Of a DNA stretch of 64,000 nucleotides, positions 17,415 through 63,175 are shown one piece after another. Positions within the stretch are counted from its first letter, which is position 1, and each line of letters opens with the position of its first letter. The stretch spans positions 44,702,001 to 44,766,000 of the forward strand of contig NW_027266343.1 in the NCBI RefSeq assembly GCF_022045235.1, written 5' to 3'. Origin of the DNA: Haliotis cracherodii. Lineage: Eukaryota. The position numbers were made by a program, and so were the translations under genes. The notes under the pieces were generated by a model that saw nothing but the letters and a program-made list of their open reading frames with translations, did no database searches and was not told the origin of the DNA.

Positions 17415-18951
17415 TTGGTCAGCATAGCAGACTGGTCACCCTGCAAATTCAACACCTGAAACAACCATGTAAATATTAGGGCCAGGATGGGTAACTCAGG
17501 TACTCAGGTCAGGTGGATCCACAGGACTACCTGGACCCGTGGTTAGTCACATAATGAGAAAAGTTCACTACCACAATTCCATGATTACCTACAAATTTCT
17601 AATGTTCGTACAACTTTCTGAACCTTACTTTCATATGTTTTATGTAAAGATACAGCTTCAGTCAACTTCAGCATATGCATAACCAGATTGTTTTATAGAT
17701 GTACTTAAATACCTTTTGCCAGGGGGTCCGGTAAAACAATTCCTAATCGCACATTTTGTACCCATCTCTTGAATCTACTGTGGGTGTCCGAGTATGAAGT
17801 AAATATGACAATCCCCAACACCTCCCAAAGTCTTTAGTCATTAATGTGGCACTATACAATTTCTTAATCATTGGTGATCTCCTTGATTAATATTTTTATC
17901 TTTACAAGACCACATGTACTTCTGGTTTCATGGAATTTCTAAAGCTAATATTTGTAAACAATTATAAAGTAAACTGTTACAATCTAATTTTAGTGGTCTT
18001 GAGGTGTGTGCACAAATCCTGCAAACAATTTCATTTTTTTGAAACTGGGTATTTTCAAGTATTTTCAAGAACACTTTGTATTTTGTAAATATTGATCAAC
18101 TGTACTCACACGTCTATGTAGAGAACTTACTTGATGGGCCTATAAAATACGATTTATCTTTTAACTTTTTTTTCAGTTCAAAGAGAATAAATGATTTCAT
18201 CACATATCTACCTGCTTTATTTCTCCCATCCCCATGACAACGCGGTAACACAAGAATCACTGAGCAACAGAAAATACAAGCTAGGCCTGCTATAACCTGC
18301 TAGTGCTAATAAGTAATATGATCTACTAGTCATATCATCGGCCCAGGTGTTTTATTTCTTTGAAGATCAACATCTACATACAAAAACAGATACTGTGAAT
18401 ACCTCGGTGTTTTCTCTTTCGAAATATCCTGTACAGTAAAAAAGATCCACTCGGAAAGGATTACAGCTATATATCATATCCAGAATCTTTGTCTCCCAAA
18501 GCCGCAAAATATAGAAGCATCGGGCACCTTCGTGGAACAAAATTACTGAACTCCTCACAGCGCTCAGCTCGTTTTAACGACTGGTGCAATGGATACAATG
18601 CGCATCCGCCCGGATAATTTAGTTCAATATGTCCGTCCTCAGACTAGAGGCCCAGTCGGTAAGAGCCTTTGTTGTGGAGATTTTAAGAGGGGATGTAACT
18701 CTGTCCGTGTACGGTTATTTCGCAGATAGATCAAGTTCCCCAACAGAGACGGATCGAGCCATTTGGCGATTCTCATGGAAACGTGATGCATGTAGCTATT
18801 GTTTTGTTTTTTTGTTGTTGTTTTGTTGGGGGGAGGGGGTTATTTTGTGTTTTAACTTGTCTAAAGTCTCGTGCGAAAGACGAGATTATAATATAAGTAA
18901 AACGACGTGCATAAAATAGAAGCTAGAACTCAAATGTTTATTCAGAACTAA

Positions 18952-21603: not shown

Positions 21604-23628
21604 TCAAAACAATTTATGTCCAGTATGGACCAGAAACTTAAGTTTCTGCCAAAACAAATTGTCTTCCCTTCTCAAATACTCCTTCCTGTTCAACGCTTTC
21701 TTTGCGGCCTCAGACCTTACATTATCAACGTCGATGTTGTTGTAAATAATCATGATGATGTTGGATTCGTGGTCTTTGTGTTTGTGTCGTGCCTGGTCAT
21801 ATTCAAAAGATGTCCAGTTGAGAGCGTTGAAGTATGTGTCAGATACGATGGATATAAACCGCTTGCTTCTGTCAATATAACTCAGTATTTCCTCTGCCTG
21901 TGAAACTCCAACGTCAAAATCCCGTAACGGACAGCAGATTCGAAAGCCTTGATTATTATTTTCCAAATTTTCCAAAAGGACATTTTTAACCCAAAGTACA
22001 ATGTCCATATTGTCGTTATCAAACGACAAGTAACCATGGTAGTCCATCTCCGCTTCGTCATCTTCATACTTGCCAACAGGTTGGACTTTTCTTCCTCTTA
22101 TTAAATACATCACAAATGGAAGCTTTTTCTTTCCCCAAACTCTGCATGCTACAGCAGCGAGTATTACCATGGCAACGGTGATGGTAACGCCTACTGTTAC
22201 GGGAACCACTATAACAGTGACACAGTCAATGCGGTCCTTCATGGCAGATAGTCTGATAGGCGATCCATCCTTGTAGCATACTGATCGCTGATTGGCTGGA
22301 TCGTTACTCGTGACGTCTATCCAATCAGAAACCCATGTTAAATCACAAGAGCAGTCGAGTATGTTTCCTTCCAAATGAACATTACTGAATCGCACAACTT
22401 GTAACTCTTTCGGTAGCGTCATCAGCTGGTTTGAAGCAAGATTAAGCATAGCTATATTTCCCATGACTTGAACAGCTCCCCCTTCTATAACAAACAATCT
22501 ATTATTGGACAAATCCAGGTATGTTACACGTGATAGGTATGATCTAAACTCAAGCTTTGAAATATAATTCCAACTTAAGTTTAAATACAATGGCCCCGAG
22601 GGCATCTGGTCTGGAAATGAGATAAGAGTGGAACACACGACGCTTGTATATTTGTACGCTGGTACACTCTGGCAATGGCAGGAAGTGGGACAGCCTTCAA
22701 TAACAGGACATACCAACTCAGTAATTGGCACGTCCAGTGCATTCTGGCCACTGAGTCTCTTCGGGGTTGCACATTTGAATGATAACTGGTCACGTATTGC
22801 TTTTGACAGCATAAATGTGTCTGAATGCAGTAGATGTCTGAATTCATACAGCATGCAGTCGCATCGCCATGGATTGTTTTGGAGAAGAAACCCCATTGCT
22901 CCAAACTTCATCGTGGTGACTGTATCTGGATCAGCATTAAAGTGGTAGACATCTTTCACAGCGTCTAGGATCCACCCCGAGAAGTTATTGAAGGTGAGAT
23001 CAACCCGATTATTCAGACCTAGTTTTGACGTCCTAAATATGTCCACAATGGTGAGGTTTGGGGCGTTCCGGAAGATGCTGATGTCGTTGTGACTAAAGTT
23101 AAATGTCGAAATTTGATTATTTTTTGTGAAAGGCCAAGGTTCAAAGTAGGTCAGTTTGTTGTAAGATAAATCCACACCTTCGACACAGGTAACATATCCG
23201 TCAAAAGCATGTGGGTCTATCCGGTGAATATGATTATGGGATAGATACAAAAACTTTGCGACAATGCCCTTGATCTCTGGCCCATTGATCTCTGCGATTT
23301 TGTTGTAGGATAGACGAAGATGGTGGATATTGATAGTTAAGTTTTCAAAAAACCCATCCTTAATTTCTGCAATTCCATTGGATGACAAATCCAAGATATT
23401 AATATGTTTATTTATTAAGGATCGAAAGAGTGCAGGTTTGTCCAGAGAACCATTCAGAACTGTGATCAAGGACGAGTTGCAGTACACGTCTTCTGTGTTG
23501 CAAGTACAGTTGGTCGGGCAACTCGAGCTGATATCGCTTGAGGTGAAGAAATTACAGGCAAACATAATATGACATGTCAAAGCGAAAATATATACGACGG
23601 TGTGGATGATTCTAGCATATCCCATCAT
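21604..23628 (-). CDS. Toll-like receptor, multiple-cysteine-cluster (protostome) type, 674 aa, single coding exon
   Basis: Signal peptide, LRRNT (CPTNCTC), LRRs, LRRCT (NPWRCDC), second LRRNT (CPTSCHC), LRRs, second LRRCT (NILDCSC), TM helix (VIVVPVTVGVTITVAMVILAAVA), and TIR domain (YHGYLSF, RDFDVG, FWQKL). Confidence 0.95.
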   Translation of the reverse strand: MMGYARIIHTVVYIFALTCHIMFACNFFTSSDISSSCPTNCTCNTEDVYCNSSLITVLNGSLDKPALFRSLINKHINILDLSSNGIAEIKDGFFENLTINIHHLRLSYNKIAEINGPEIKGIVAKFLYLSHNHIHRIDPHAFDGYVTCVEGVDLSYNKLTYFEPWPFTKNNQISTFNFSHNDISIFRNAPNLTIVDIFRTSKLGLNNRVDLTFNNFSGWILDAVKDVYHFNADPDTVTTMKFGAMGFLLQNNPWRCDCMLYEFRHLLHSDTFMLSKAIRDQLSFKCATPKRLSGQNALDVPITELVCPVIEGCPTSCHCQSVPAYKYTSVVCSTLISFPDQMPSGPLYLNLSWNYISKLEFRSYLSRVTYLDLSNNRLFVIEGGAVQVMGNIAMLNLASNQLMTLPKELQVVRFSNVHLEGNILDCSCDLTWVSDWIDVTSNDPANQRSVCYKDGSPIRLSAMKDRIDCVTVIVVPVTVGVTITVAMVILAAVACRVWGKKKLPFVMYLIRGRKVQPVGKYEDDEAEMDYHGYLSFDNDNMDIVLWVKNVLLENLENNNQGFRICCPLRDFDVGVSQAEEILSYIDRSKRFISIVSDTYFNALNWTSFEYDQARHKHKDHESNIIMIIYNNIDVDNVRSEAAKKALNRKEYLRREDNLFWQKLKFLVHTGHKLF

Positions 23629-25329
23629 TGTTTGAGTGTGCTGAGAGTTTCTTCAAATTGAAAGTGTAATGAAAATGAAAGTTTTACATTCCAATAGAAA
23701 TAAAAAGTTTGTAAGTGAAGTCAGGGTCAAGGTCAAGGTCCAGGCCGGGTTCTCCACTCAGGTTAAAGGTTGCTGCACGAAGTCATTTTGTGGTATCGTG
23801 ACCACCGAGAACATCCTACATGCCCGGTACCTCGAACGAGGGAATATGATTGCTTCCATGGTGTTCTGTTCCTTTGTACACTGCTAAATGTCGGGCAAGT
23901 TTCTTCCCCTGCAAAACACCAACATCGTATAAGTGAGTGAGTGAGTGAGTATGGTTTTACGCTGCTTTTAGCAATATTCCAGCAGTATCACGGCGGGGGA
24001 CACCAGAAATGGGCTTACCACATTGTACCCATTTTGGGAATTGAACCAGGGTCTTCGGCGTGACGAGCGAACGCTTTAACCACTAGGCTACCCGACCGCC
24101 CCCAACATCATATAAGAGACGCAGTAAATTTTGGTTGCATTTTTAGATGTGACCAGGTCATTTCCTACCGACATGGTAGGCATTTAAACGCCACACAAGT
24201 GCCTTCCTTCTTATTATTTGGTACTGTGTCCCATTGCTCTTATTGTGGGAAATATTCCGCACTCAACAATATTCCAGCTTTATGACGGCGGTCTGTAAAC
24301 AATCGAGTCTGGACCAGGCAATCCAGTGATTGACATCATGAGCATAGATCCACGCAATTGGGACACAATGACATGCATCAACCAAGTCAGCGAGCCTGAA
24401 CACCCGACCCCGTTAATCGCCTCTTACGACAAGCATAGTCGCCTTTTACGGCTAGCATGGGTTGCCGAAGACCGATTCTCTCAATCTTGTCAGTGTTGAA
24501 TGTTATTCCAGCTTTATGACGGCGGTCTGTAAACAATCGAGTCTGGACCAGGCAATCCAGTGATTGACATCGTGATCATCGATCTGGGATACACTTGGGA
24601 TACGATGTACACACCTGATAGTGTTCAATGTCATTTCAAGAAAATAATCTTCATACAAAAATCTTTGAAGTCACATAAATAAATGTGCCACTGCAAGCTA
24701 GTCTGTCGAAATAACAGAGTCACGGTTTACTGTTTGAGTATTTGTTCTTGACAAGTAAGCAGACGCTAGCTGTCAGAAATATAGATTACTTAACGAATCC
24801 CGTTCGATACCGTATATTATACAATGGGTGCATTTCAAAACGCATCTAACGAATGGCCGAGTCAGATACGTTTTGAAATAACAACGGTATCAAAAGGGGC
24901 GAGTGTAGTTATTTATTTATAACCCACTATACTCAGCACATTATCTAAATTCAACGTCGATAAAAGCCGTTGTTATCACGTTCGTTGAAATACACTCGCG
25001 ATAAGAACGATATCCAATCGTGAATTGTGATCACGAGTAAAGTTTCAGTTAGTAATAAATATATTTATTTATAACTCGCTTAAACTTTCAAGCATGTACT
25101 GATTCTGGTAATGTAACCGTCAACCCCATTTGTCCACCAGCTAAAGTTTTACCCATTGCAATAAACGGAGAGTCAAAGTAAGAGCAGTCAGTCTCACAGT
25201 CCCTGGACCATGTTACACCCCCTTCTACTAAGCGATTACTGTAACGTTATAGCTCTAAATGAAGCAAGTCTGCATTTTCCACAGGCTCAGGATCTCCCGT
25301 TTCATTACGGATCCTTTTCATTTTAATGG

Positions 25330-30585: not shown

Positions 30586-33500
30586 TCATTTCAATTTAGG
30601 TAGGTATCTTTTCAAATATTCAAATATGTCTCTTATGTAGGTAAAAATGGACCAAGCCTCGCGTTTCCCAACTATGGCTTCATCGATCTCTTCCTTGTGA
30701 GATGAAGCTTTCGAGCCTTTACAGGGACTCTGGAATTCTTGTGTCAGCCAATCCAAGGCGTCTTTAATGCCTGACCTTGAGAGAATGCTGCATCCTATTA
30801 TGTTGGCCCCTGGAAACGTACAGTAAACTACATTTATAACGAAGACGCTTACAACGAATTGACGGATATAACGAACAGGATTTTGTCCCGGCCATTTGCT
30901 GTCTATTTTATCTAAAAGAATTGATGGATATAACGAACACGCTTATGACGAAATAACGAATATAGCGAACTCTCTTTGTGGTTCCATGTGTACTCTGACG
31001 GCGACAATGTTTACGTTAATTATGTTTATTATGAGTGCGGCGTTAAACAACAAACAAACAAAATGATGGAAAAGAAAGAAACCAGTATAGGAATAATTTT
31101 ATCTGCAACGTACTGTGAGCTTTGAGTATTTCCTGGAAGTCCATTGCCTCGGCAACCTCTGGTGCTGTCAAGGCGGCCGGCAGGTCCTGCTTGTTGGCGA
31201 GGACAAGGAAGGGGGTGTTCTTGAGTGCTTCATCCTGAGCGTCAAGTCTCAGTTCGGCCTGGGCCTCCTGTATACGGTCCCGGTCGTTGCTGTCTACCAT
31301 GAACAGGACGACGTCGATGTGTTTGTAGTTGTGCCGGGGATACTGGGGATGGGGAACAATCATCTCATGAACAGCGGCATGATGCGGCGGGGCGCTGCTC
31401 TCCAGCCGTCACATGCTACTACCATTATGCATAACAGTGTCTAGGCCTAACTTGGGAGTGGGGTGATTTGTTTCAAAGCAACGTTGAATAGTATTTCAGC
31501 GCATGCGTCAGCTTGATGTCCGATGAATGTCCGACGCGATTAAATCTTAGACGTTTACCGCTTTGGTGAAAACAACAAAAGTAGACTTGATGGCGGCATA
31601 CCAACAAGCATCATCAGGACACCAAACACACACGGTCTTGGTCAGAATAAGTCATATGCTTGTCTTAAAAGGCGACCACTGTGTCGACGTACAAGTGATG
31701 TTTGATTCAATCGTCTTAATACTGAAACTTCCCGAACCTAGCCGTTTTAGTCCGTTACATTTTATATAATTCCAAAGCTTATTTGTGTTGCTGTGTTATT
31801 TGAGCAGTTGATCTTAAACCATGTGACATAACTCACCACACGCCTTCTCTGCCCCCCGTCAATCAGTGTCAACTTGATGTTGTTGTAGACTAATGTCTTT
31901 TTGGCATCATCTAAAACATAAACCACCGTTATATCTGACATGGCATACAGTCACAGTTCAGGTATCTAACCCGTGAAGATCCAGGCTTGAGTTGTCTTCA
32001 GCAACCCGACTCACGGAATCGGATGGTCGGGTGATGCAAGTCATCATATCCCAATAGTGTAGATTGATGCCCATCGATTATTTACAGGCCGCCGCCATAG
32101 AGCTGGAATAGTGCTGAGTGGGGCGCAAATCAACAAACCCATTTCGGTATGTATACTACATTAACATCACACATCACGAATTGCTCTACACAGTTAATAC
32201 ATAACGAACGAGGTGCAATATAAATGAACGAAAAAACACGGGTTTTTGTTTTTTGAGTTTATTGGCATACACTGATTAATATTTCTTTCGAGTGAGTGAG
32301 TGATTGTGGTTTCACGCCGCTTTTAGCAATATTCCAGCAACATCACGACAGAGGACACCAGAAATGGGCTTCACACATTGTACCCATGTGGGGAATCGAA
32401 CCTGGGTCTTCGGCATGACGAGCAAACGCCTTAACCACTAGGCTACCCAACCGCCCCATAGTTCTTTCGATGTATCCTTGGACAGTTAAACTGTTTGATG
32501 AACCAGTGACCCTAGTGAAATGCAGACTTATAATTTATCATTTAAATACATTGTACCGCAAGGCCCTACTCACAGCGGGTTGGCGGCGTGCCGTGAAGTC
32601 GTGATGTTAGCAGGTAACACAGCGTGGATTTCCCTGCATTATCAAGCCCTGAGATATAAGGACACATGTGACTGGATAAAGCGACCCGTGATCACATTAA
32701 GTTCGTTTGGTCATTTGTATGGTATTATGATATCTTTATAATATACATGTAATGTGATAATATGTATATGCATTTGTACAAAGGGGTTGTCATTCTGAAT
32801 TTCCCGTTTGTAGTTTTCCATTTTCTTTCAAGAAACATTAAAAATAGATTAAAACAAGAACCATTACCATTACCATTAATTTTCTGCTTGTTCTGTTCTG
32901 CTTTTGTAATCAATATACAGACCCGTGAAGATCTAGGGTAGAATAGGTCTTCAGCAGCACATGCTTGCCGTAAAAGGTGACTATGCTAAGCGTAAAAGGC
33001 GACTCACGGGAGTGGGTGGTCAGTCTCGCTGACTTTGTTGATGCATGTCATCGTATCTCATCGATCAATCACTGGATTGTCTGGTTCAGACTTGATTATT
33101 TACAGACCGCCGTCATATAGCTGCAATATTGCTGAGAGCGGCGTTAAATAACAAACGAACTAAACAAAGGAATTGTTATCAATAATATAATATCGTTGCT
33201 ATAATGATTGCTTAAAGCAGTAATTATCAGTCGGGTGAAATAATCAGAGTTTTAATGAAAGGTCATAAGGTAACTGCTATTTCAATAGCCAAAAACAAGG
33301 AAGTTTAAGTGAGTCAGCCTGGTTAAAAAACACTGGTCTGAATGGTGTACGTAATTGTAAACCTTTATAGAATACCTTTAAACGTCACCTACTGCAATTT
33401 AAACTCAAATCAGCAGAAAGACTAAGTTTACGCATACAAAGATGGTAAATTGTTATAATTACTTTATAATTATGGAACATGCTACAGTCCCTTAACTAAC

Positions 33501-33927
33501 TAAATAGGATTCCTTTTAGCATTGTTCATGGATTAATAACACGTGATTTCTGTTCCACAAGACCTGGCTGTAAAACCTGCGAGCTTTAAACATTTTGGCG
33601 TGAAATTGTGGTCATGCGGAAATTGGAAAATAAAATATGTCACTTTTTTTAAAATGGAGCGGATATTGTTTGAAAAATAAATAATTATGGATAAAAGATA
33701 AACCCATGCTCAATCTTTCAAAGACACAGATCTAACTAGGTAGGCCAATTAATTATTATATTAAATCTAATATGTGACGTATTCAGGTCACGTGTTACTT
33801 TTGGTCTTCCAGTCTTTAAATACGACTCGATGACTATCTTGAAGGTAATAAGTACTATATACGTGCCATGCATGAGAACTACAACTTCCTTCCTTAGGCA
33901 TGGCAGCATACTAATATATTGCCCCAT
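30586..33927 (-). CDS. Arf-like small GTPase paralog A (highly divergent); exons 33927-33867, 32648-32574, 31910-31837, 31342-31114, 30809-30586
   Basis: MGQYIS start, G1 GLDNAGKST, altered G3 IDGGQR, FMVDSND, G4 ANKQD, C-terminal WSIFTYIRDIFEYLKRYLPKLK. The frame is open if intron 1 uses a GC donor. Confidence 0.8.
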
Positions 33928-39687: not shown

Positions 39688-42600
39688 TCAACCCAATTTC
39701 GGTAGGAATGCTTTGAGGGACTCGAGGTTTCCTTTCATATAAGTGGACAGTGACCAGGGAGACTTTTCAGTCTTCTTCTCCGAGGTTGCATCTGTTTCCG
39801 GGTCACAAGGCTTAGCATCCGGGCTTTTCCTTGACGTCTCGATTTCACGAGACAACCAGTTCATGGCTTCATTCAGACCCTCTCCCGTGACGGCGCAGCT
39901 TCCCATAATGGTGGCTCCTGAAACACGTGTAATTGCTCGGTTGACTCACTCGAAGGATAAACTACAGGCAATTGGAATGAGGGATACCTTAAAAGAAATG
40001 GGATTTGGGATTGCTAATGATCTGACAATGTTTCAGAGAAAAGAACTCAACAGGATGAGAACTGAGAACCCCAACAAGCGGTATTACTATAAGGGGGAGG
40101 GTAGTGGGGAGTGAGAGACAACATGTAGAGCCACCAGCAGAGGAAAGGAGACAGCAGAACGTTTACACCCCCTCTAGTAAACGTAATGGACACCCAGGAA
40201 AGAGTACACAGCAGTCCAGACAGAGCAACAGACCATCCCCTAAATCTGGGAGGAGATAGGGGTGCGGCCAGGGCCTGGACGATTTTACGACACATCAACA
40301 TCAATTGTCCAAAACAACATATGATAATGAGATAGGAAATAACATTAGTTTTTTCATTTTGGAACATTTCAGAATTAACTTCAAACATTGAGGATACGGA
40401 TACAATGAATCAGTATTTTGGGCTGAATCATTTAAGAAAATAGATGAGGCACAAGCTGGTTTTAGAGAGGGGTACTCCACTATAGAGACCACGTTTTTGT
40501 GTTACATTCCTTAATTCAAACGTTATTTATCAAGTAATGGGGGGGGGGGGGGGGGGGGGGGAGAACTTTATGTGCTTTTTGTAGATTTTTCTAAAGCATT
40601 TGGCTCAGTTCACCGTGATAAACTTTGGGCCTTGCTAAAGTTACGAAGAGTAAGCAGCAAGATGTTGAAACTATTATCAAGTATCAATAACAAGTAAAGG
40701 CTTGTGTAAGAAGTAATGGTAAGTACTCAGAAGATTTTGAATGCAATGTAGGCGTTCGACAAGGATGTATATTAAGTCCTTTTCTCTTTACTTTCTTTAT
40801 TAACGAGCTGTCAGAGGAAATACTAAACAATTGTAAAGGTGGTATACAGCTACACCCAGATATTGTTAAAATATTTTTTCGTCTGTTTGCCGATGATGTA
40901 ACTTACTGATTTCGAGTACTGTACCCGGACTTCAAAGTCAGATAAATGTGCTGGAGCATTTTTGTGAACAATTTGGTTTAAGTGTTTACACAAAAAAGAC
41001 CAAAGTTATTGTATTTAAAAACGGGAGAAATGGTTGTACTAAGAGAGTTATCTGGACGTAGTTACAACCTATAAATATTTGGGAGTACATTTTTCTATTA
41101 AATTATCTTGGAATTTTCATTCAATACAGGCTGCAACACAAGCAAAGACAATTCTCTATGGGAAACTTAAACGTCTCAGATCTATTGAGAGTGTAAATTT
41201 TAATCTATTTCTTACATTTTTGACACAAAAATAAAGCCAATTCTACTATATGGGGCTGAGGTTTTTTGACTGAGCGTCCAAGTAAGTTACAACTAACTAT
41301 GAGTTTTCAGGATCTGCTTGAACTTCATTGCCTTGGCAACCTCTGGAACTGTCATGGCGCCTGGCAGGTCCTGCTTGTTGGCCAGTACGAGGAAGACGGC
41401 GTTCTTGAATTCCTTCTCCTCAAGCAAACGTTCCAGCTCGTCCCTGGCATGTTCCACGCGCTCCCGGTCGTTGCTGTCAACCACGAAGAGTACGGCGCCG
41501 GTGCCGGTGTAGTAGTAGTGATACAGAGGGCGCTGGAAAACATAGCAAATAGATTGAATATCGTTATATGCTCATATATACTTACATATAAAGTAGTCTA
41601 TTGACATTGATTAATAATGGATAATTCATTTATCTTGTATTAATCGGATATATCGGCGCCATTTTGTTTTGTTCATTTGGCCGTTAGCATATCAAGTTAG
41701 CACGTGCGTTCGTGTGTGTGCCGCGTGTGTGACTGTTAGCTTAACGCGTGTGTGCGCGTGCGTGTGCATGTTTGACTCTTGGCTTGAGGTGTGTATGTGT
41801 GTGCGTGTGTGTCTGTTAAGCTTAACGCGTGTGTGTGTGTGTGTGTATGTGCGTGTGTGTCTCTTAGTTTGACGTGTGTGTGCGTGCGTATGTGAGTGCG
41901 TGTGTGACCGACCAATTGATATTATGGAGGGGGCCTGGGATTTTATCGAAAAAAATAAATTGTCACAAAATGCTTGAAAAAAGATTATGCTTCAGATTAT
42001 TGAAAAAGAAGAAATTGTCGGCCAAAAATAAACAAGACGATTTATAACAAAAGTATTTAGAATTCCCCCGAATATCAAACGGTTGGTCCCTATCTGGCCA
42101 TGATTACGAGAGGACAGTTTACTGCAGCACCTAGTAGCTATGGCTGATGTTGGGTGTGTGGAACTTACAATGGCCGACCTTCCGCCAACATCCCAGGCTA
42201 TGATGTGTATGTTCCTGTAGGACACTGTCTCCTGAACAAGACCTGCAATGAAACCGTATCCAGGTGAGAATTCAGGTTGATCGCCTTCACATTTCTTCTG
42301 TACACAATCTGGGGGACTATGCTTGTTGTAAGAGGAGACTAACGGGATCGGGTGGTCAGGCTCGCTGACTTGGTTGATGCATGACATCGATCCCAATTGC
42401 GTGGATCGATGCTCATGATGTCAATCGCTGTATTGTCTGGTCCAGGCTCGATTATTTACAGACCGCTGGGATATGGCTGAGTGTTGTGTTTAACAACAAA
42501 CAAACGAAACACATTCTGGGGATTCATCTCCAGAACTCGCTGTAATAGTTTTAGCTTATGTGTTTATCAAAATCTGCGGAAGAGGATATGTTTTGTGGAT

Positions 42601-43589
42601 TGTCCTTATATGGCATATATACCCAGCTTGCTGAAAGGATTAACCTCATCCGTCATGACAATAACTCTTCCGACCTTGGTTCGTAGTTCGAATCCCATCA
42701 CAGAAGTGGGATACGTTGCGACCAATACACTTACACCACCCTCAGGCACGACACCCACCTATCGTTGGATTAGTTTCAACGACCTCCCCTAGTTTCAGCC
42801 TGTACAGTATTGTGGATTTCCCTGCAGCGTCCAGTCCTGTAAAGTAACACGACAGAAGCAAAATACTAGTTAACCACGGTATATGCATGTATGAATGTAT
42901 TCAACACGTACTGTTGGTTGGCATATACTTACGTAGGAGGGAGGATTCCCATTCAAAGAGAAAAAAAATCCAAAGTTTAAAAAGGTTTTAGATCACTAGT
43001 ATGAGGATTGTTAAAAAACAAAATTGGACAGTCACACTCATTTTTGAAATAGTGAATACGAAATATATGACGACTGCTTACTTTTGAGAAGAGTATTATT
43101 TTATAGTTTGATATATCATGTGATTTTGTTTGTTTGCTTGCTTGTTGTTTAACGCTGCAATATTCCAGCTATATGGCGACCGTCTGTAAATAATCGAGTC
43201 TGGACCAAACAATCCAGTGACTGATATCATGAGCATCGATACACGCAACTGGGATACGATGACATGCATCAACCAAGTCAGCGAGCCTGACCACCCGATC
43301 CCGTCAGACAAGCATAGTCGCCTCTTATGGCTAGCATGGGTTGCCGAAGACCAATTCTACCCCGGATCTTCTTAAATACACATAATATTAAATATGACCA
43401 AGAGCAACTATGATTAAAGGCATATCATACGAAAATCCGATAATAAGTCACTTTAAAATTCAAAAGAAAAAGAAGAACAAAATACAAAACCTTCAAGAGA
43501 TAACTAACTGTACACCTACCATGCATAATCAGCTTGACTTCGATCTTCTTGAACCATCTCTGTGTAGAGCTACTCAAGTGCTGCCCCAT
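39688..43589 (-). CDS. Arf-like small GTPase paralog B; exons 43589-43520, 42836-42759, 42242-42169, 41532-41298, 39917-39688
   Basis: [55 protein letters not shown] introns with phases 1,1,0,1. Confidence 0.92.
39925..41265 (+). mobile_element. Decayed LINE (ORF1-like piece plus reverse transcriptase fragments), antisense in intron 4 of paralog B
   Basis: ORF1-like [12 protein letters not shown]...[15 protein letters not shown]; RT motifs [36 protein letters not shown] with stops and frameshifts. Confidence 0.85.
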
Positions 43590-45146: not shown

Positions 45147-48828
<3,682 letters not shown>

Positions 48829-51554: not shown

Positions 51555-52124
51555 CTATTCCTTCACCTTCTTTGCCTCCTCCTCCTCCTCCTTCTTCTTC
51601 TTCTCCGCCTTCTCCCTCCTCTTCTTCATAGCGTCCTCCTCTGCAGCCACGCTCAGGCCGTTGACGATCCTGCGAGCCGATTTGTCAGACTTTGGTACCA
51701 GGAACGTCCTCTCGACGACACGGAATCCATCGTCTCGGGACACGTGGTCTTGGTTGATGATAATCTGGCTGTCCCAAACTGTGTACACTACAGTGACCTC
51801 AACCTCCTCCTCTTTCTCTATTGGTGGCATGACATCCCGACGTGAGAAGCCGAAGGGCGTCAGCTTCAGAGTCTTGGGGTCAGCCATCACAGACTGCATG
51901 CATGAGCGGCGATAGACCTCCTTCTTCTTCTTTGGTTCGAGTTTCTGAGACAATTGACCGCTATGGTCAACTGCCAAGAAAACAGTAGTTTTATCCTTTG
52001 GGACTGTCTTTGTCTTCGACCTAAACAGCTTCTTAAACCTAGAGAATCTGGACTCCGACTTGAGCCCCGGCTTCTCTTTGTCTGTCGTTAGGGCCGGACC
52101 CACGCGGCTATGGATACACCCCAT
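51555..52124 (-). CDS. Intronless orphan ORF, 189 aa, with MGCxxS N-terminus, polybasic segment and K/E-rich C-terminus
   Basis: Long open frame with GC content above its flanks; upstream TGACGTCA (52285) and CCAAT (52305); downstream minus-strand AATAAA at about 51380 and 51425. Confidence 0.6.
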   Translation of the reverse strand: MGCIHSRVGPALTTDKEKPGLKSESRFSRFKKLFRSKTKTVPKDKTTVFLAVDHSGQLSQKLEPKKKKEVYRRSCMQSVMADPKTLKLTPFGFSRRDVMPPIEKEEEVEVTVVYTVWDSQIIINQDHVSRDDGFRVVERTFLVPKSDKSARRIVNGLSVAAEEDAMKKRREKAEKKKKEEEEEAKKVKE

Positions 52125-55100
52125 TCTCAGTGTCTGCTAGTGTCTAACAGTCGTAGCGACATTGCGACACACTGACATGGCGCACTGCATCAAAGCGACC
52201 AATTATGCCCAACGCCATATTGCTGACTGTTCCATGCTGTCGTCTCCATGCAAATGACATTGGGCGACGACGTCGTCAAGCCTGTGACGTCATAGAAGGG
52301 CAGGCCAATCACGACGTCGTCCCTGAACGCGGATATGTAAATACATGAACCTCTTTATAATTGGAATACATCAATATATTACATATCAGATAATTACTAG
52401 GGTATCGTTGCATTAATTTAGAAATTGAACATTATAATCATCAAGTGCTTTAAATAATAACCGTCATACAGCTGGAATATTGTGGAGTGCAGTGTTAAAC
52501 AACAAAAACAAATACCACTAGTAATACCGCAATGAATTAGGTAATTCTCAATAAATACCCCTAAAAAGTTCTATGATTTATCCGATGCTTGATTAAACAA
52601 TAAAAAATATATTTTTGAAACATCCCAAGGTAAATCCGTTTAATAAAGTGTTTGTGGATAAGTGCAGTGTGTTTCAGGTCATATCTGCACACGGAAAACG
52701 ATAACAACATTGTTAAATAAATCCCTGCATGATTCTCCGTTGGGATTGTGGGGTGGGGGGTATCCCTATAGTAGCCAGTTCTTGTCGCAAGATGTGGAAT
52801 ATAGGGATCGGATGGTGTGACCTGGCTGTGTGCCATCGTGCCCCGAAGGTGTACAGTAGATTGATGCTCATTCTATCAACCTTTTGGGTACACTTGCATA
52901 AAGCGATCTTAGTGCTACGACGATCGTAACTCCCATGCTCTATCATAGACTTATACTTGTCGTATCGCTAAGATCGCTTTAAGCAACTGGGCCCTCGTTA
53001 GCCTGGCCAGATTTTTACTTTCATGGGGGCACGGCTGGCCCAGTCGTCTAAGGCGCTGCAATTCGCTGTGCAATGTTGTGTCAGTTGGGCACGCCAAAAA
53101 CCCTGTGATTGTGGGTTCTAATCCCAGTTCGCCCCGATTATGTTTCTGGATTTATCAGCACCGTACCCGTGCTCTTGGGTTTCACCAAAGTGGTAAACGT
53201 CTAAGACATGCACTACTTCGGGCTTCCTACCTACATTAACCTGACACGCCGTGATACAACTGGAAAACTGTTCAAAACAGCGTTAAACCTAACTTACTCA
53301 CTCACTCTATTGCTTACAGGCCGTTGTGGATAAGCTGGACTTGCTGATTGACGTAAAACACTCGAAAATAGTGGGTGTAGCGACAATCAATTGGATGACA
53401 TTCAGCATAGTCATAATACACTCCTCATCGACAATATCCATATTATTAAATGTTTGATTAAATACCTTTGTCAAGGACTTAAGATCAGAATTAAGCAAAT
53501 CATCTATACCTGGAACAAAGTGTACTGCATTCCAGCCGTTTATTCAGCATGTAAATAATATTAATTATTTTCCATCTTGTTTGTATTATTGGCTTTGGGC
53601 CTAAAATACTGAATAAAGTCTGTCTGTCAGTCTGTCTTCCTATACCCTTCACCACGTGAGTGGGCTCGTGAGTGGGCTCGTGAAGTTATCATTTACGCCA
53701 GACATAGTAATTTTATGCCAGCAGTCTGTAAATCAATGAGTGTCCAACAGACAAATTATAATTAATAATATGGGCTGCTGAGTGAGAGTATATATCCAAT
53801 GCCACAGTGAACAGTATACATGCAGGTAATTTAGCTGTTGCTTATTTTTAACTAGCGGCGTGCCTTTGGCTGGCACTTCAATAGAGTTGTCTCTTTACTT
53901 GAGCGTTATCTCCCTTTTTTCGAGGAGCCCTCAAGCTCCTTCCAAGCGCGTGACACCTTCGTTACACTCTCGGTAACATCGTTGCCACCAGTGTGGGCGC
54001 GGCCATTACAAGAATCTTGAAATTTGTCCTCCAACCCCATATGTAGTAACGTTTATACTTTTGTTTAAGTCTTTGGGAATGCCATCATATTTCAATTTGA
54101 AAAGGTTTACGACTGACCATGTTTTTAGATGAATTTACTTTGTTGTTTTGATAATCAGATTGGTTCGAGATTGCAGACTAACGGAAAATCAACGAACTTC
54201 TCGCTTACATTCTTTCTACATCAATAATTCGATAGTTTTAATGAAACAGAAATTCAAATTGACAAACGAAGAAAGTAATTTAGCAGCGATAAGTGCATTC
54301 GGCGTCACGACAGTCGTCACTTGTTTGTAAACATAACCATCATTCGGTTGCGAGTTCAACTCCCAGCATGGTTGTCGCCACATATTCACAGTGGGGAGTT
54401 TTGACTGGTGGCAGCGATAGTTTAGAGATCTCCGGGAACGTACTATCGCTGTGAGGAGCTTGCAATAGCCCGTGAGTAACGAAGGTGTCACACGCTGGGA
54501 AGGAGCTTGATGGAGCTCTCTGTTCCCGGATCCTCCGCTTGGTGTCGCTGCTCTTACTCTGCTTTCCAGTCTGTCCATTCGTGACCAACTCGTGTTATTC
54601 CGGTACAAGCCGAATAGCGACACAATATTGCACACAAAAAAAGGTCACATTATGTTTCCTACAAACCATGGCATAGGTAAAAAATAAATCAGTTAAAAAA
54701 GGGGGCCCGATTTGTTTTTTAGAAAAAAATACCACATTTGGAGAGAAATACACACACAAACACTTCGGTTATTACAAATATACTCAATTGAAGTTAAAGA
54801 ACACCCATGACAGATTAACTACGAATAGGAAAGAATCAGGTGTTATCTAATTTCCTTTGAGTAGTATATATTGTGTCATCTGATGGGTAAATGAAAGGAA
54901 CTCTATCCAGTAAGACCACTTGTTCTGGCACACACGATTTAGTCAGACTTAGTCACAATTACATGGTTATAGTTTTCATGTCATAAAACATCCCGATATA
55001 AAATATGATATTCAACAACAGTAACAAATGTTCAATCAATATCCAAATACAATTGTATCCATAAACAACAAACAATATCACAGTTGGACACAGCAAGGAA

Positions 55101-55638: not shown

Positions 55639-58600
55639 CTACCACAATCTTGGCAGCAAGCTTTTGAAAGTTGTAACCGTCCCCTTCACATAAGATGAGA
55701 ATGTCCAGGGTTTCTTGTCACTATCTGAGCCTTCCTGGGATGGAGCCTTATTAGTTTTGTCCTTCGTTTTCCCAGTTTCAGATGAATACCAGGACTGGAA
55801 CCAGTAGCCAGACTTCGGCACCAATTCTTCACTCAGCCAATCCAGTGCCTTAAGCAAGTCACCTTGACCCTCAGGCATCACTGCTGAACATCCAAATATG
55901 TTCATTTCTGAAAAAGAAATGTCACTTTTCCATCAATATAGACCACAATATGATATTCAGTCAGCATGGATATAATTGTCATTGTTGTCATGATCACTAT
56001 TTGTCATGAGCACTTAAAACATAAGCAGTAAGTTTGCCTCTTAATAATGGTTATTCCAGTTAGATTTCTAGGGCCCCAAGTACCCGTGGATACTTGTACA
56101 TTGTATGAGAGACAAGATGGACACTGAGAAGGCAGAAAATTCAATTTAAACATTTAACAGCTCAGTGTAGATCATATTTAGCACTACAATGACTAATTGC
56201 AGATCTACATACATGTAGATACTTTTTATATATACACTTCCAGAATTTAACTATATTACTGATTGCTATATCGTTATGCTTTAAGGTCGATATTAACACT
56301 TCAAACCAATGACCCCCCCTAGATTCTGGGGAAGAATAGGTTCGCAGTGCCAAAAGCTTGTCTCCCTTGGGTCACCAGAGTAGAAAATTCACTCCAAATT
56401 CACAATTTACTAAGGAGGCATGTAGAGCAAACACTCACCGTAGATATTTTGACAGCTTATGAGTGAAACTTAATTTCTCAGTTAGTGTGCACATGTTTTG
56501 GCAAAGCGATGAACAAGTGTGTATTTAATACATACTTCCCCCAATATCTAATATGTAGCGACATTCCAATGAAGACGTCTCAGAGCTATGATGTCAGCCA
56601 ACAAGGTCACAATGCAGCGACGTCATAGTGAACGAAACACTTTGGCGCCGTTCTCATTCATGGCCCATGACATCATACTGCTTTTATCACAACACACAGG
56701 CTTAGACCGATGACATAATGTCATACCACACTGCTTGTATGATAACAAACGGACTTAGATCCCTGACATAAGCCCATACTGCTTCTATGACAACGGACAA
56801 ACAGACCCATGACATAAGCTCATACTGCTTGTATGACAACGGACAGAGCGTCCCATGACATAAGCTCATACTGCGTGTATGACAACGGACAAACAGACCC
56901 ATGACATAAGCTCATACTGCTTGTATAACAACCAACAGAGACCTATGACATAAGCTCATACTGCTTGTATGACAACGGACAGAGCGTCCCATGACATAAG
57001 CTCATACTGCTTGTATGACAACGGACAATCAGACCCATGACATAAGCTCATACTGCTTGTATGACAACGGACAAACAGACCCATGACATAAGCTCATACT
57101 GCTTGTATGACAACCAACAGAGACCTATGACATAAGCTCATACTGCTTGTATGACAACGGACAAACAGACCCATGACATAAGCTCATACTGCTTGTATGA
57201 CAACGGACAATCAGACCCATGACATAAGCTCATACTGCTTGTATGACAACGGACAAACAGACCCATGACATAAGCTCATACTGCTTGTATGACAACGGAC
57301 AGAGAGTCCCATGACATAAGCTCATACTGCTTGTATGACAACGGACAGAGCGTCCCATGACATAAGGTCATACTGCTTGTATGACAACGGACAGAGTCCC
57401 ATGACATAAGCTCATACTGCTTGTATGACAACAGACAGAGAGACCCATGATATAAGTTCACACTGCTTGTATGACAACGGACAGAGCGTCCCATGACATA
57501 AGCTCATACTGCTTGTATGACAACAGACAGAGAGTCCCATGACATAAGCTCATACTGCTTGTATGACAACAGACAGAGCGTCCCATGACATAAGCTCATA
57601 CTGCTTGTATGAAAAGGGACAGAGAGTCCCATGATACAAGCTCATACTGCTTGTATGACAACAGACAAACAGACCAATGACATAAGCTCATACTGCTTGT
57701 ATGACAACCAACAGAGACCTATGACATAAGCTCATACTGCTTGTATGACAACAGACAAACAGACCCATGACATAAGCTCATACTGCTTGTATGACAACGG
57801 ACAAACAGACCCATGACATAAGCTCATACTGCTTGTATGACAACAGACAAACAGACCCATGACATAAGCTCATACTGCTTGTATGACAACCAACAGAGAC
57901 CTATGACATAAGCTCATACTGCTTGTATGACAACGGACAAACAGACCCATGACATAAGCTCATACTGCTTGTATGACAACAGACAAACAGACCCATGACA
58001 TAAGCTCATACTGCTTGTATGACAACCAACAGAGACCCATGACATAAGCTAAGCTGACATTGCCTGCAGATCCTGACTAAAACTAAAACAGAAACACACT
58101 CACTTTTCCCAGAAGGTCTTTGCTCACATAATTTGTTGTAGTTCATTTTTTCCTTGATTTCCTCCACACTCATGGCCGAGCCCAAGTCCTGCTTGTTGGC
58201 CAGGAGCAAAATCACAGCCTCTCCCAGCTCTGGTTCCATCACCAATCTCTTCACCTCATCAGCCATCTCTTCAAGCCTGTCCTGATCAGTGCTGTCTATG
58301 ACAAACATGAGTGCCGATGCTCCAGGGAAGTAGTGTCGGTACAAGCTCCGCTGGAAAAGAGGAAGAGAGGAGGAGGATTGAACAAACTACTGCTTCTTTG
58401 GTATCTTCAGACAAGGACCATACTTGATTAGGGGTGACTATTGGTCTGGAAATCACTATTGCGATAATTATTGATAGTTTTCAGTGTATCATTTTAGATG
58501 GATTTTAGAGTTGAATTAAACCTTGGAACTGTAGTTTCCTTTGAATGTGATAACCATAACAACAATAGAAAGTAAAGTTCGAGATACGACTGATTTGTTT

Positions 58601-61600
58601 TTTCTTTACCCTAATAATTTAAGAAAAAGAAACTTCAACATTAGCATGTGTAAATTACTACCACTCATGATCAAAAGAAAAACAAATTTGAACAGCATTG
58701 CATGTACAATCGAAACTATCAATATTCCTAATTGAAATCAATACTATTGATCGTCAACTAATTACACAATCGATTTATTGACTTTATGTGCTTACCAATA
58801 GCAATTTATCGATATTTCGATTTATCGTGACACTTTATACTTGATACTGTTAATCTGGACAGTTTTGCAAGCAAGAAAGTATTGCAAAATGTGCGCATGA
58901 CACACACTTGCAATAGTTTTATGATGCAGTCATTTTTCAGACCAACAAGAAACAATGATGTAAAGATGCATATTTCTTTTGTTTACTTCTACACATTGTC
59001 AAATCAGCCAATGCATGATTGATTAAATAATATACTCAATTACACATTGTCCTCAGTGTCAAAAGTTTAATCAGGAAAGTTCACTTAGCTGTCACATCTC
59101 ATCAAATTGTTTACATGCCACTGACTAGTCTAGACATAAGCCAGCCAGTTCTTTACTGTTGAATAAACCCTACTCCAACTACAACCACACATGCACCTAT
59201 AGTCAAAGAATTACTGACTGACCTTGGGTTATCATTTCACCGAAGGGTTAAAATCTACAGTATTTGTAGAAATACCTCACAATCTACTTTACAAATACTG
59301 TAGATTGTACTTCAAATGTCTTTCTACAATTGTTAAATTATGTGGTGTCGTTGCTGGAGTGTGTAAATACATTATGACGTCACAGTTGTAATTTATGACG
59401 TCATAAGTATGACGTCATTCATATATCATTGTCAGTTACACTGAAGAGCTGTCATGAGAAAGTCAAAGTACTATGTCTGAAACTGATAAAAACAAGATGT
59501 TGGACTAACATGGTCTTTGTTTTTTATATATTACATGTACACTGAGTGAACATTCGTATGCCTCGTTTTAGTGTGTATGCATATATATACTCTTGTACCA
59601 TCATTTGTCGTTTTTCAGAGAAATAAACTGAAACTGAACCAAGAAGCTTCCTATTTATATACTACTCAAAAGAAGTTAAGGATCACCAGATTCTTTCATA
59701 ATGGTAAAACAAATCTGTCACGACATGAGAGATTACCTATAATTTTTCATGGCGCCACCCTTTCAGTACTTGTACGATGTACAGTTTGGACAAGCTGCAT
59801 CAGACATGTCATATGTAACCATAGTAACATAAGTTTAATGCTGAACATTTCTTCTTTCAATATTTGGGAAAATATAATGTGGCCAAAATTATATCTTGCC
59901 CAATACTTATTTTCATTGTTTTATATACCCAGTTCATATTCTATAGTATTCAGCCATGATCTAATACTTGCTTCAGAATTCCTTGTCTCAAAAGCCATTG
60001 TGATGCAGGAATAAACATAAACTGCACAGAGGGACTGTTATTGTCATTGTCTATTCATTTCAGAAATTAGGGCTGGAACGGAGAACTCGGGTACTCGGGT
60101 GGGTCCTGTCGTTAGTCACCTGATATATTGTTTAATGACAAAAATTCACTATAGCTCAATGGTTAAACTACAAGTCACTAATGTTCGCCTTTCCGTCTTA
60201 CGATGCACACATTCCTTTTGACTTGTATATGTCTGACTACAGATAAAGCTTCAGTTAACTTCAGTGTACGCACGATCTGATCGTTTGATACATGTACCTA
60301 AAGAGTTTTGGCCAGGGCTGCGGTAAAACAATTCCCAATCAGACATTTTGTTCTCAACTCTTGAGACCTGCAGTGGGTACCCGGGTAGGGTCGGGTAGTA
60401 GGGGGTCAGGTATCTAGGTAGTAAATCTGGACTCGTCCCAACCCTATCAGAAATCAGTAACCTAAACAGTGAAACCATCAAGTCTTTCACTTTAGGCAAG
60501 GAAACAAACAACTGCCTCGTCAAAATGGATTACAGTGAAAACCTAATTCATTCAACAATCCACATTCCCGAAAAGCCCTCAACATGCAATTTTTTTCTAC
60601 ATGGTAAATGTGTTTGACAATTGTCCAGAGCAATGTTATTAAAACTACTTACAACTTTGTCCCTCCCGCCGACATCCCACGCTGCTATACTGATATTCTT
60701 ATGTGTAAAATGCTCCACATTAAAACCTGAAATAAAACACAGCGTATAAATGTGCATGGTTATGTTACGGGTTCTTACATGACATGCAAAAAATATCACT
60801 AATACCTATCATCACTGATCATGTCAACATACAATATGTACAAGATAACATGGGCGTCACAATAAAACATGCTGTGTAGATGCTCTAATGGGATCTGCTT
60901 TTCTGACCCAGAGTTATGACCCGTGAAGATTCGAATTGGTCTTCAGCAACCAATGCTTGTTGTAAGAGGTGACTGAAGGGACTGGGTAATCAGACTCGCT
61001 GACTTGGTTGCTGCATGTAATCGTGTCCCAATTGCGTGGATCGATGCTCATGATATCAATCACTGGATTGTCAGGTCCAGACTGGATGATTTACAGACCA
61101 CTGTCATATAGCTAGAATATATCTGAGTGTGGCATTAAACACCAAACATTAACATGATTAAACCAAACTCACTCTCCAAGATAACCAAAGTCATAACCAT
61201 GATAACGTATCTACATAGCATTATCATGATTATATTTACACAATAAACATAGCCTTGTACTTGCCTACTGTTAGAGTGTTGATATTCTGAGACAAAAGTT
61301 GAGTAAATTAATATCACTACTGCTACTTACCTATCAAAATACTAAACAAACAAGACAAAAACTGAGTAGGGCTCACTAATACCCTCGACTTCGATTCCAA
61401 CATACATGATGTATTTCTGAGTTCAAAACATGAAATCAAACTTTGCACTGCACCTCTCCTATTGGCATAGAAACTGTATACCCAATTGAAAAGAATCCAT
61501 GAAGTATTTTTTCAGTTATAGCTTGCATAAATGTAAAAGTAAAAAAAATATTCTAATTTCAAGAAATGCAAACACTGGTAAAGAATCATTTTTTTCAGAA

Positions 61601-63175
61601 AATACACATATCAAAATTTAACTTTGCACTGCATCTCTTCTATTAGTATGGAAACTGGTCCCTAAATTTGAAAATAATCCATGCAACAGTTTTCAAGTTA
61701 TGGATTACATATATGTGCATGTAAAAAAATTAATTAAAAGCTGCACCTCTCCTATAGGTATAAAAGGTGTTTACCAAATTTGAAAAAAATCTATGAAGTA
61801 GTTTTCAAGTTATCATGGTTATAGGTCACACACAAAAATGTCCTCAGAAGGAGGGAGGAAATTCCTTGGTATAACAATATACCCCTGTGCCCCTTTAGGT
61901 CGGGGCACAAAAAACATATCCAAACATACACACATACCAATTGTAGGAATGGTTGTCACCACTTCTCCTTGCGTTAGGATGTACAGAATGGTTGTTTTTC
62001 CAGCAGCATCAAGACCTAATGCAAGAAAGAAGATTGTGTTGAACATGTTAAAGATGACAGACCAAAGCAGATAGGCATGGAATGCACTTTTCTATTCTAC
62101 AGCCTCATGTTGATCTTCAATCAGGTGACTTCTAGTTCTGTTTGTAACCTTGGTAATGTCCCCGGCTTTGAAGAATTCCAAGGGAACATGGTTATACAGT
62201 AGTGAAAAGCAGCCAATTAGAGGTTGGCTCTAAAATAAAATTAGCAATCCTCCCCTTATTCTGTTCACATCTGTGACAAGAAGGGATAGGGATTAGCTGA
62301 GTTTGGTCAAATATATGGTATTCAAATGCAGTGGGGAGAAATCATTGCCTGTAGCTGACATGAGTGATGAGGTTCAACAGTAGCCTAGTCAGTATGTTAT
62401 TGTCTTGCATGTTAATTGGGTCCCAACAGAGCTCTCAGCCAGTCAGACACAATCACGGTTCTGGCTATTGTTCACCCAGCCCTTATTGGAGGGCATGGCT
62501 CATTTATAAAACTTACCCTCAGATTCAGCTCATAAAGTGCAAGTATCATCATGGTTTGGTACAACTTTGCAGAACTGGATACATTTTGTAAAATTGGAAA
62601 TTCAAATATCGCATTGGCACGTAAATAAGGTTAATTTACTCCTTAGCAGTGGCTATCAATTTAAAAACATCAACGTAAGCAGGGGCTTTATATATAAAGG
62701 CTCGATATACAAAGGAAATACAGTAGGGTAACGCAAATATTAGCACTATGAAAATGAACATTAAACTGAGCACACTAACCATTCCAACTAAAAGTTTCTC
62801 ATAACGTCAAATTAAATAATATATTTTTATGTAACAAATTTTTAAAAAAAAACCCCACAGAACTGTCAACTGTCATGATCTATGGAGAAAGGGCCAGGGG
62901 TCTAAATCGTCAAAACTTGACCCTACTGTTGAGCTAGCCAAGAGCCGCGATACCTGGCATTGGGCCAGTGCAGGAAACATTTTCTTGACTATCAGATCTC
63001 GCCGAATAGTCTTGCCCCACATGCTCGGCTAATCATGAACAAGGGGCATCGGTAGTTGTGCCATCTGAAATGAATGTTCTAAGTATGTAAAACAGCAGAT
63101 CTACGCACCAAATATAATAATTTTCATATCTTTCTTCCACCCGAGTGTCGCAAGTTTACAGAGAGAATGTCCCAT
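55639..63175 (-). CDS. Arf-like small GTPase paralog D; exons 63175-63109, 62015-61938, 60726-60653, 58350-58104, 55907-55639
   Basis: [57 protein letters not shown]. Same intron positions as A-C. Confidence 0.93.
56663..58050. repeat. 44-46-bp minisatellite, about 30 copies, in intron 4 of paralog D
   Basis: Unit CCATGACATAAGCTCATACTGCTTGTATGACAACGGACAAACAGAC with variants. Confidence 0.96.
61348..61916 (+). mobile_element. Helentron/HINE-like non-autonomous element with internal degenerate repeats
   Basis: AAACAAGA start, three degenerate TGCACCTCTCCTAT...GAAAA.AATCCATG repeats, and a 3' hairpin TGTGCCCC...GGGGCACA followed by an A run. Confidence 0.55.

Follow-up and report, generated by a model that had tools for sequence, protein, structure and literature searches.

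The stretch of DNA considered here comes from the abalone Haliotis cracherodii (RefSeq assembly GCF_022045235.1, contig NW_027266343.1, positions 44,702,001 to 44,766,000 of the forward strand; 64,000 nucleotides, termed the window) and contains four Arf-like genes in tandem, named A, B, C and D. Judged from their sequences, these genes very probably belong to the subfamily Arl20. Each of them encodes, beyond the G domain and a polar linker, a C-terminal amphipathic helix that is under purifying selection, and in B, C and D the residue corresponding to Gln71 of Arf1 is Arg. The sequences narrowly favour a reading in which the tail folds on a membrane as a second, nucleotide-independent anchor that chooses the organelle, and in which Arg71 leaves B, C and D poor at GTP hydrolysis.

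Arf proteins are taught as switches with an N-terminal anchor, which bind membranes in step with GTP until a GTPase-activating protein (GAP) ends the binding. A classical Arf binds membranes via myristate and an N-terminal amphipathic helix that is released by GTP, its intrinsic hydrolysis is undetectable and a GAP is required (PMC12554972); Gln71 is a key catalytic residue (PMC12485133, PMC3012027). Arl20 is a group derived from Arf1 that occurs in unicellular holozoans and invertebrates, was lost in vertebrates, and has no known function (Vargova 2021, PMC8358228). If the favoured reading holds, Arl20, which has persisted in lineages that range from Capsaspora and sponges to molluscs and amphioxus, would break both of the rules taught for Arf proteins, by means of its C-terminal helix and its loss of Gln.

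A first-pass annotation of the window had pointed out the four tails and suggested that they are membrane anchors. To that annotation are now added the probable identity of the genes as Arl20, the age and breadth of the tail within the subfamily, the Arg in place of Gln71 in B–D and the weak N-terminal helix of A, C and D. The family already has a name; the two traits, i.e., the tail helix and the Arg, appear to be undescribed in the open literature searched.

The Four Genes and Their Tails

The tails were located via a six-frame scan of the window, and five-exon models were then built for all four genes. All coordinates are positions within the window, and all four genes lie on the minus strand:

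30586..33927, minus strand: gene A, divergent probable Arl20 paralog, 220 residues; no database protein or spliced contigs confirming the model
33927-33867, 32648-32574, 31910-31837, 31342-31114, 30809-30586, minus strand: exons of gene A; GC donor in intron 1
30654-30589, minus strand: tail helix of A, 22 residues, net charge +3, the most amphipathic of the four
39688..43589, minus strand: gene B, probable Arl20 paralog, 228 residues; Haliotis asinina ortholog P0019
43589-43520, 42836-42759, 42242-42169, 41532-41298, 39917-39688, minus strand: exons of gene B
39757..39846, minus strand: linker of B, polar, 30 residues, weakly constrained
39756-39691, minus strand: tail helix of B, 22 residues, net charge +2; the segment highlighted by the first-pass annotation
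42178..42180, minus strand: Arg codon of B at the position of Arf1 Gln71 (G3 motif WDVGGR)
45147..48828, minus strand: gene C, probable Arl20 paralog, 228 residues; identical to database protein P0343
48828-48765, 47739-47662, 46695-46622, 46406-46172, 45382-45147, minus strand: exons of gene C
45215-45150, minus strand: tail helix of C, 22 residues, net charge +4
46631..46633, minus strand: Arg codon of C at the Gln71 position
55639..63175, minus strand: gene D, probable Arl20 paralog, 244 residues; identical to database protein P0001
63175-63109, 62015-61938, 60726-60653, 58350-58104, 55907-55639, minus strand: exons of gene D
55707-55642, minus strand: tail helix of D, 22 residues, net charge +3
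60662..60664, minus strand: Arg codon of D at the Gln71 position

Apart from the GC donor in A, all introns are GT-AG. The models of C and D match H. cracherodii database proteins (P0343 and P0001) letter for letter; among the proteins that were fetched for comparison, none matches A or B exactly. Contigs of public runs skip the final intron of both C (45381-46171; four of four runs, three studies) and D (55907-58104; four of four runs, four studies), the runs being presumed RNA. In both genes, the contig junctions link the G-domain exon to the tail exon, in agreement with the models; no contig piece spans A or B among the matches listed.

The stretch on which the first-pass annotation centred (frame 39858-39688) runs, in B, from the end of helix alpha5 through the linker and the tail. 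The four tails that it quoted are present verbatim, each running up to the stop codon and closing the last exon of its gene, and the linkers that precede them are polar, as it stated, with lengths of 28-40 residues.

The tail has been conserved more strictly than its surroundings. In four comparisons (three pairs of H. asinina orthologs, plus B vs C) 19 of the 22 tail residues are identical (86%), compared with 70-75% of the C-terminal half of the G domain and 53-60% of the linker; conservation in orthologs had been named beforehand as a check on the tail, and it is found. The ratio of non-synonymous to synonymous substitution rates (dN/dS) for B vs C rises from 0.10 in the tail through 0.28-0.31 in the G domain to 0.81 in the linker, these being rough estimates because the regions comprise only 22-92 codons each. 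Thus, the tail is under purifying selection.

The claim that the tail is conserved even in A holds for the hydrophobic pattern but not for the residues, only 6-11 of 22 of which A has in common with the other three tails. The tails of A and C differ at 30 of 66 bases, and nine hydrophobic positions are nonetheless kept. In a neutral simulation, these nine positions (selected after the four tails had been seen) were preserved in 92 of 50,000 replicates, or 92 of the 19,743 that were free of stop codons.

In each tail, a hydrophobic face is segregated from a basic or polar back, and the net charge is +2 to +4. Over tail positions 3-18, the hydrophobic moment amounts to 0.75 for A, 0.51 for B, 0.58 for C and 0.54 for D, and when each 22-mer is shuffled the corresponding p values are 0.011, 0.084, 0.035 and 0.040, i.e., three of the four lie below 0.05. 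The amphipathicity of these basic, predicted helices is real, though moderate, and the earlier claim of a terminal helix that classical Arfs lack is borne out at that moderate strength. A transmembrane or prenyl anchor was considered and rejected: the maximum 19-residue Kyte-Doolittle mean is low (0.06-0.39), and the four tails are without Cys, CaaX or a terminal peroxisomal targeting signal type 1 (PTS1).

AlphaFold2 was run on D (alignment of 34 rows) and on P0017 (51 rows), an ortholog of C that is 98% identical to it. Both models show an Arf fold, a disordered linker with a predicted local distance difference test (pLDDT) score below 50, and an undocked terminal helix of low confidence (residues 226-238 of D, pLDDT about 52-54; residues 210-221 of P0017, pLDDT about 51). 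The structure prediction proposed as a check on the first-pass annotation thus yields the expected helix after a disordered linker, but at low confidence (pLDDT 50-54). Structure searches return Arf and Arl chains that align over the G domain only. A homodimer prediction for P0017 scored 0.00, which is not evidence for or against. D has, in addition, an aromatic segment directly after helix alpha5 (window 55790-55830, minus strand; predicted as a short helix, 187-195), which is retained in the H. asinina ortholog and is possibly a further contact with membrane or partner.

The exact sequence of the tail reaches less far than its pattern. A profile of the tail alone, another check proposed earlier, retrieved five Haliotis proteins strongly from 341 fetched proteins but only three others, weakly (E 0.09-0.3), so that the exact abalone motif is restricted to abalones within this set. 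With the last exon of D as query, two proteins were found among 21 candidates, both from Haliotis; the last exon of B recovered A, B and C from the genome and missed D and a further copy on contig C15 (see below). Because such searches recover few relatives, the tail serves badly as a query. No Pfam model matches the tail, and in the ESM Atlas no match to residues 180-228 exceeded 0.84 by features or a template modelling score (TM) of 0.5 by structure; a query with the whole protein led only to generic Arf clusters.

Assignment to Arl20

D matches the Pfam family Arf (E 7.5e-56), and its best structure matches are Arf1, Arf3-type, Arf6 and Arl1 chains. The best 120 of the 3,262 proteins matched by D include many Arf-like proteins of 213-232 residues with similar tails, whose hosts are gastropods, bivalves, rotifers, a sponge and a hemichordate. 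The named matches that are tailed and of the Arg type (molluscs, rotifers, sponges, a hemichordate) fit the invertebrate range of Arl20.

Two of the fetched proteins tie the abalone genes to published Arl20 sequences: compared by eye with the available supplement of PMC8358228, P0020 matches OcaArl20 exactly, and P0111 is all but the same as AdaArl20b. A tree of 54 G-domain rows separates 31 tailed ones, among them A–D, the C15 copy, P0020 and P0111, from 23 others (Arf1, Arf4, Arf6, Arl1, Arl2, Arl4, Arl5, Arl19 and TRIM23) with support of 92/93, short of a star; the abalone Arl4 lies outside the Arl20 group. For this tree 162 of 246 columns were kept and sparse ones dropped, and three rows retained part of the tail and one was mis-trimmed. 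In a second tree, with the trimming corrected and the G3 residue masked, all 23 of 23 Arl20 rows and the unnamed P0341 group together (Shimodaira–Hasegawa-like approximate likelihood ratio test, SH-aLRT, 80). The trees give moderate support to an Arl20 clade. Within the array, strong support unites A, B and C in a clade of abalone genes, in which A joins B and C at 97/89.

Arl20 genes are reported to have three unique introns plus one that is common to Arf1 and Arf4 (PMC8358228). In the abalone, one phase-1 intron, which interrupts the switch I Gly codon (IPTI|GF), is common to A–D, the C15 gene and the Arf1, Arf4 and TRIM23 genes of the genome. The three further introns of A–D have no counterpart of equal codon and phase in models of 12 other Arf-family genes of the genome, some of which lack 5′ exons; the C15 gene has two of the three at the same place and the last at a distance of two codons.

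The C15 gene is a fifth Arl20 gene of this genome (C15:1042100-1049400; L004, L005), with Arg at G3. By eye, it is the ortholog of limpet LgiArl20a in the available supplement. Its tail helix differs, having two cysteines and then a polar end. The genome also holds five Arl19-like genes in tandem (C2:6236000-6312900; L013-L017), and thus both of the Arf offshoots that were lost in vertebrates, Arl19 and Arl20, have expanded in it.

The Tail and the Gln71-to-Arg Change Across the Subfamily

In the available supplement of PMC8358228, 14 of 19 Arl20 sequences end, by eye, in a linker followed by an aromatic, basic, two-faced helix: two from amphioxus, one from acorn worm, four from rotifer, two from limpet, one from annelid, two from sponges and one each from Monosiga and Capsaspora. 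The position of Gln71 holds Arg in 18 of these 19 sequences and Gln in none (by eye). B, C and D have the Arg-type G3 motif WDVGGR, and A is degenerate in G3.

The same association is found in the larger set. Among the 341 fetched proteins, 296 have one readable G3 motif, with Arg in 69, Gln in 218 and another residue in nine. An extension of at least 25 residues is present in 69/69 proteins with Arg (62 tails of 29-75 residues, two second G domains, three Arl17-like domains and two long low-complexity regions) and in 52/218 with Gln, the remaining 166 having none; the 52 mostly resemble read-through or mispredicted ends. Since the fetched proteins are related and were selected by tailed queries, these counts are not independent trials. 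A profile search of 1.84 billion representatives returned, as its best 150, mostly Gln-type Arfs with stray extensions, and so does not chart how widely the subfamily occurs; these rows were reused as controls. The best terminal moment is 0.50 for the Arg-type proteins (n = 69) vs 0.39 for 40 Gln-type extensions of 25-120 residues, and shuffling within each sequence gives p < 0.2 for 27 of 69 Arg-type tails vs six of 40 controls. Several relatives run on past the helix with acidic or polar residues. From these sequences, the C-terminal helix on a flexible linker appears to be an old trait of the subfamily, and its exact motif one of abalones.

Neither the tail helix nor the Gln71-to-Arg change seems to have been described for Arl20 in the open literature searched, a brief mention elsewhere being possible. 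In the available main text of PMC8358228 the word “amphipathic” is absent, the section on attachment has six modes and no C-terminal helix, and the alignment used for introns has its termini trimmed. Searches of open sources (subscription journals lay outside them) found “Arl20” with “ARF” confined to the work of PMC8358228 and “Q71R” with “Arf1” in no paper, and none of the papers listed on an Arf with a C-terminal extension or helix concerns Arl20, judged by title or start of abstract.

Switches, Effector Surface and N-terminus

Thr48, Phe51, Trp66, Arg75 and Tyr81 are invariant in 59 Arg-type proteins; thus, the effector triad (Phe51, Trp66, Tyr81) and Thr48 are intact across the subfamily. 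Trp78 is replaced by Tyr or Phe in 27 of the 59, whereas it is Trp in 71 of 71 classical Arfs. A separate gene of this genome, which is Arl4-like (L024, C12:54808500-54811500), has Lys at the Gln71 position.

At the N-terminus, A–D all have Gly2, followed by Ser6 in A and B and by Cys6-Lys7 in C and D. The best 11-residue N-terminal moment is 0.25 for A, 0.59 for B, 0.13 for C and 0.37 for D, while in the same genome three Arf1 genes have 0.62-0.72 and Arf6 has 0.43; the medians are 0.57 for 59 Arg-type proteins vs 0.68 for 71 classical Arfs. A, C and D have an N-terminal helix of weak amphipathicity, which bears on how a second anchor would be used.

Gene A stands apart. Trp66 is lost, there is no DxxG glycine in register and switch I is largely degenerate; the dN/dS of its G domain is about 0.45-0.6 and its branch is long, and its frame is still open and its tail the strongest of the four. 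It is a probable pseudo-GTPase.

Possible Functions of the Tail

According to the favoured reading, Gly2 would be myristoylated and the tail helix would insert shallowly into an anionic or loosely packed membrane, whichever nucleotide is bound, thereby compensating for the weak N-terminal helix. With both anchors on one membrane, the protein could act as a coincidence detector. The precedent of Irgb10, whose targeting depends on both a myristoylation motif and a C-terminal amphipathic helix (PMC3681737), makes such paired anchors workable. If B, C and D are mostly GTP-bound, each may be a lasting landmark, or a scaffold to which Arf-type effectors bind, and not a coat switch that cycles fast. 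A, in view of its broken switches combined with the strongest tail, might be a pseudo-GTPase that is targeted to membranes and influences its paralogs. The second membrane anchor inferred by the first-pass annotation is thus retained as a selected, basic amphipathic helix on a disordered linker, but nothing points to one of the organelles suggested for it.

Several points weigh against this reading. The tail of B misses 0.05 in the shuffle test (p 0.084) and the amphipathicity is moderate; across the fetched proteins, p < 0.05 is reached by only six of 69 Arg-type tails (controls one of 40), and those proteins are kin, redundant and picked by likeness to tailed queries. The effect of Arg71 is extrapolated from mutants of Gln71 and Gln61, and Arg71 could instead aid catalysis. 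In the supplement of PMC8358228, as far as available, three of 19 Arl20 sequences, all choanoflagellate, lack the tail by eye and two are ambiguous, and a table in that paper predicts myristoylation for just three of six Arl20 rows. Finally, an ortholog identity of 86% that includes residues of the polar face would exceed the needs of an anchor that only binds lipid, and is equally compatible with a protein-binding site.

This last point leads to the alternative that the tail is a protein-binding helix, contacting a receptor, an effector, another Arl20 or the G-domain groove of the N-terminal helix, and regulating the switch rather than binding lipid. It has a modest chance of being correct. 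The high identity among abalones, which extends to Lys and Gly of the polar face and to the terminal Leu-Pro-basic-Leu motif, would suit it, as would a groove left free by the weak N-terminal helix and a tail moment that is moderate; yet across the subfamily only the pattern of the tail has been kept and not its sequence, although the G-domain surface is conserved, and AlphaFold2 predicts no docked helix, with helix confidence not above about 54 in either model. The two-ended tether proposed by the first-pass annotation, with the myristoylated N-terminus on one membrane and the tail on a second, so bridging organelles, is improbable and has not gained ground, its case coming down to the length and geometry of the linker. 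A disordered linker of 28-40 residues spans roughly 10-14 nm when extended (0.35 nm per residue), and a switch poor at hydrolysis would make a stable bridge; however, the linker is short and alike across the subfamily (interquartile extension 39-48 residues, helix included), and the models predict neither a coiled coil nor a rigid spacer. In the Arf fold, the two termini lie on the side that faces the membrane, and binding in cis is therefore simpler than a tether.

Basic, hydroxyl-rich amphipathic helices at the end of a chain resemble import or insertion signals, and with a net charge of +2 to +4 the tails could be sorting signals for a receptor at the mitochondrial surface or the peroxisomal membrane without themselves binding lipid. 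This is quite improbable: the tails are too little hydrophobic for a transmembrane anchor, the four have no PTS1 or CaaX, and several relatives carry acidic or polar residues beyond the helix. That the likeness of the tails reflects recent tandem duplication or gene conversion of neutral read-through would be very surprising. The abalone clade of A, B and C and the restriction of the exact motif to abalones would agree with it, but the linker of the same exon is far more diverged, dN/dS (0.81 vs 0.10 in the tail) contradicts neutrality, synonymous differences in the tail are many, and similar tails occur from Capsaspora and sponges to amphioxus in the published sequences available.

The anchor reading can be extended, with a small chance of being right, to a GAP-resistant Gln71-to-Arg switch that combines myristate with a C-terminal anchor. 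Such a combination would be a seventh mode of attachment in the family, convergent with IRG proteins, and the abalone array, whose pseudo-GTPase copy neighbours a Toll-like receptor and a macro-domain-like gene, would then mark an invertebrate cell-autonomous defence GTPase that senses damaged or foreign membranes or bridges two of them. None of the papers listed on abalone infection concerns these genes by title or start of abstract.

The function of Arl20 has been a blank so far, and the targeting of the tail and the sensitivity to GAP offer concrete and cheap tests. Tail and Arg at G3 together are also easy marks for annotation of proteins that are now labelled “ADP-ribosylation factor 1-like” or “uncharacterized”.

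Neighbourhood of the Array

About 7 kb from gene A there is a single-exon Toll-like receptor with LRR and TIR matches (window 21604-23652, minus strand), and further along a single-exon GT10 fucosyltransferase (window 16248-17435, minus strand). Between C and D, an open frame (window 51555-52136, minus strand) has Gly-Cys after its first Met, which makes dual acylation possible; it is basic, ends in a charged run and has no Pfam match. About 10 kb beyond D lie exons that by eye are macro-domain-like (L007, C80:44775001-44785000, plus strand) and that presumably resemble a PARP14/15-type gene. Intron 4 of B contains a decayed fragment of a retroelement, by eye reverse-transcriptase-like (window 40515-41250, plus strand), and intron 4 of D a tandem repeat with units of ~40 bp (window 56800-58060).

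Comparison With Known Systems

The closest likeness of the four genes is to the published Arl20 sequences (PMC8358228, as available), with which they have in common an Arf1-like G domain, the grouping in the tree, an invertebrate host, four introns with one common to Arf1 and Arf4, Arg at G3 and similar tails; they differ in forming a four-gene tandem array, with a fifth copy on another contig, and in the broken switches of A. The likeness to the classical Arf1, Arf4 and Arf6 lies in the fold (TM-score about 0.92 by target, over about 170 columns), Gly2, Thr48, Phe51/Trp66/Tyr81 and Arg75. In contrast to these, the abalone genes have Arg for Gln71 (B, C and D), a weaker N-terminal helix, 45-65 extra C-terminal residues and different introns: a classical Arf chain ends a few residues past helix alpha5, whereas A–D add a linker of 28-40 residues and a tail of 22.

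Arl17 is likewise derived from Arf1, with a C-terminal extension and with Gln71 replaced (by Arg or Cys in most sequences, by eye), as far as the available sources extend. However, its extension consists of one to three copies of a 100-residue domain, whereas those of A–D are of 50-62 residues and disordered except for one helix. The ranges of Arl17 and Arl20 are nearly complementary in these sources. These ranges and the loss of Gln71 in both groups suggested Arl17 as a sister or ortholog of Arl20, but the masked tree, in which three Arl17-like proteins (P0314, P0322, P0340) lie outside Arl20, does not support this.

Functional C-terminal extensions are found elsewhere in the Arf family, as in Arl13B. 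That of Arl4 is a nuclear localization signal (PMC3424131). The extensions of Arl4 and Arl13B are basic ones of this type or coiled coils, in contrast to the polar linker and terminal amphipathic helix of A–D. Irgb10, a 47 kDa IRG protein that oligomerises on the vacuoles of pathogens, belongs to another GTPase family and is likened to the abalone proteins here by its anchor design alone. In that design, an N-terminal myristoylation motif is paired with a C-terminal amphipathic helix (PMC3681737), which makes Irgb10 an analogue of how the four Arl20 candidates may work.

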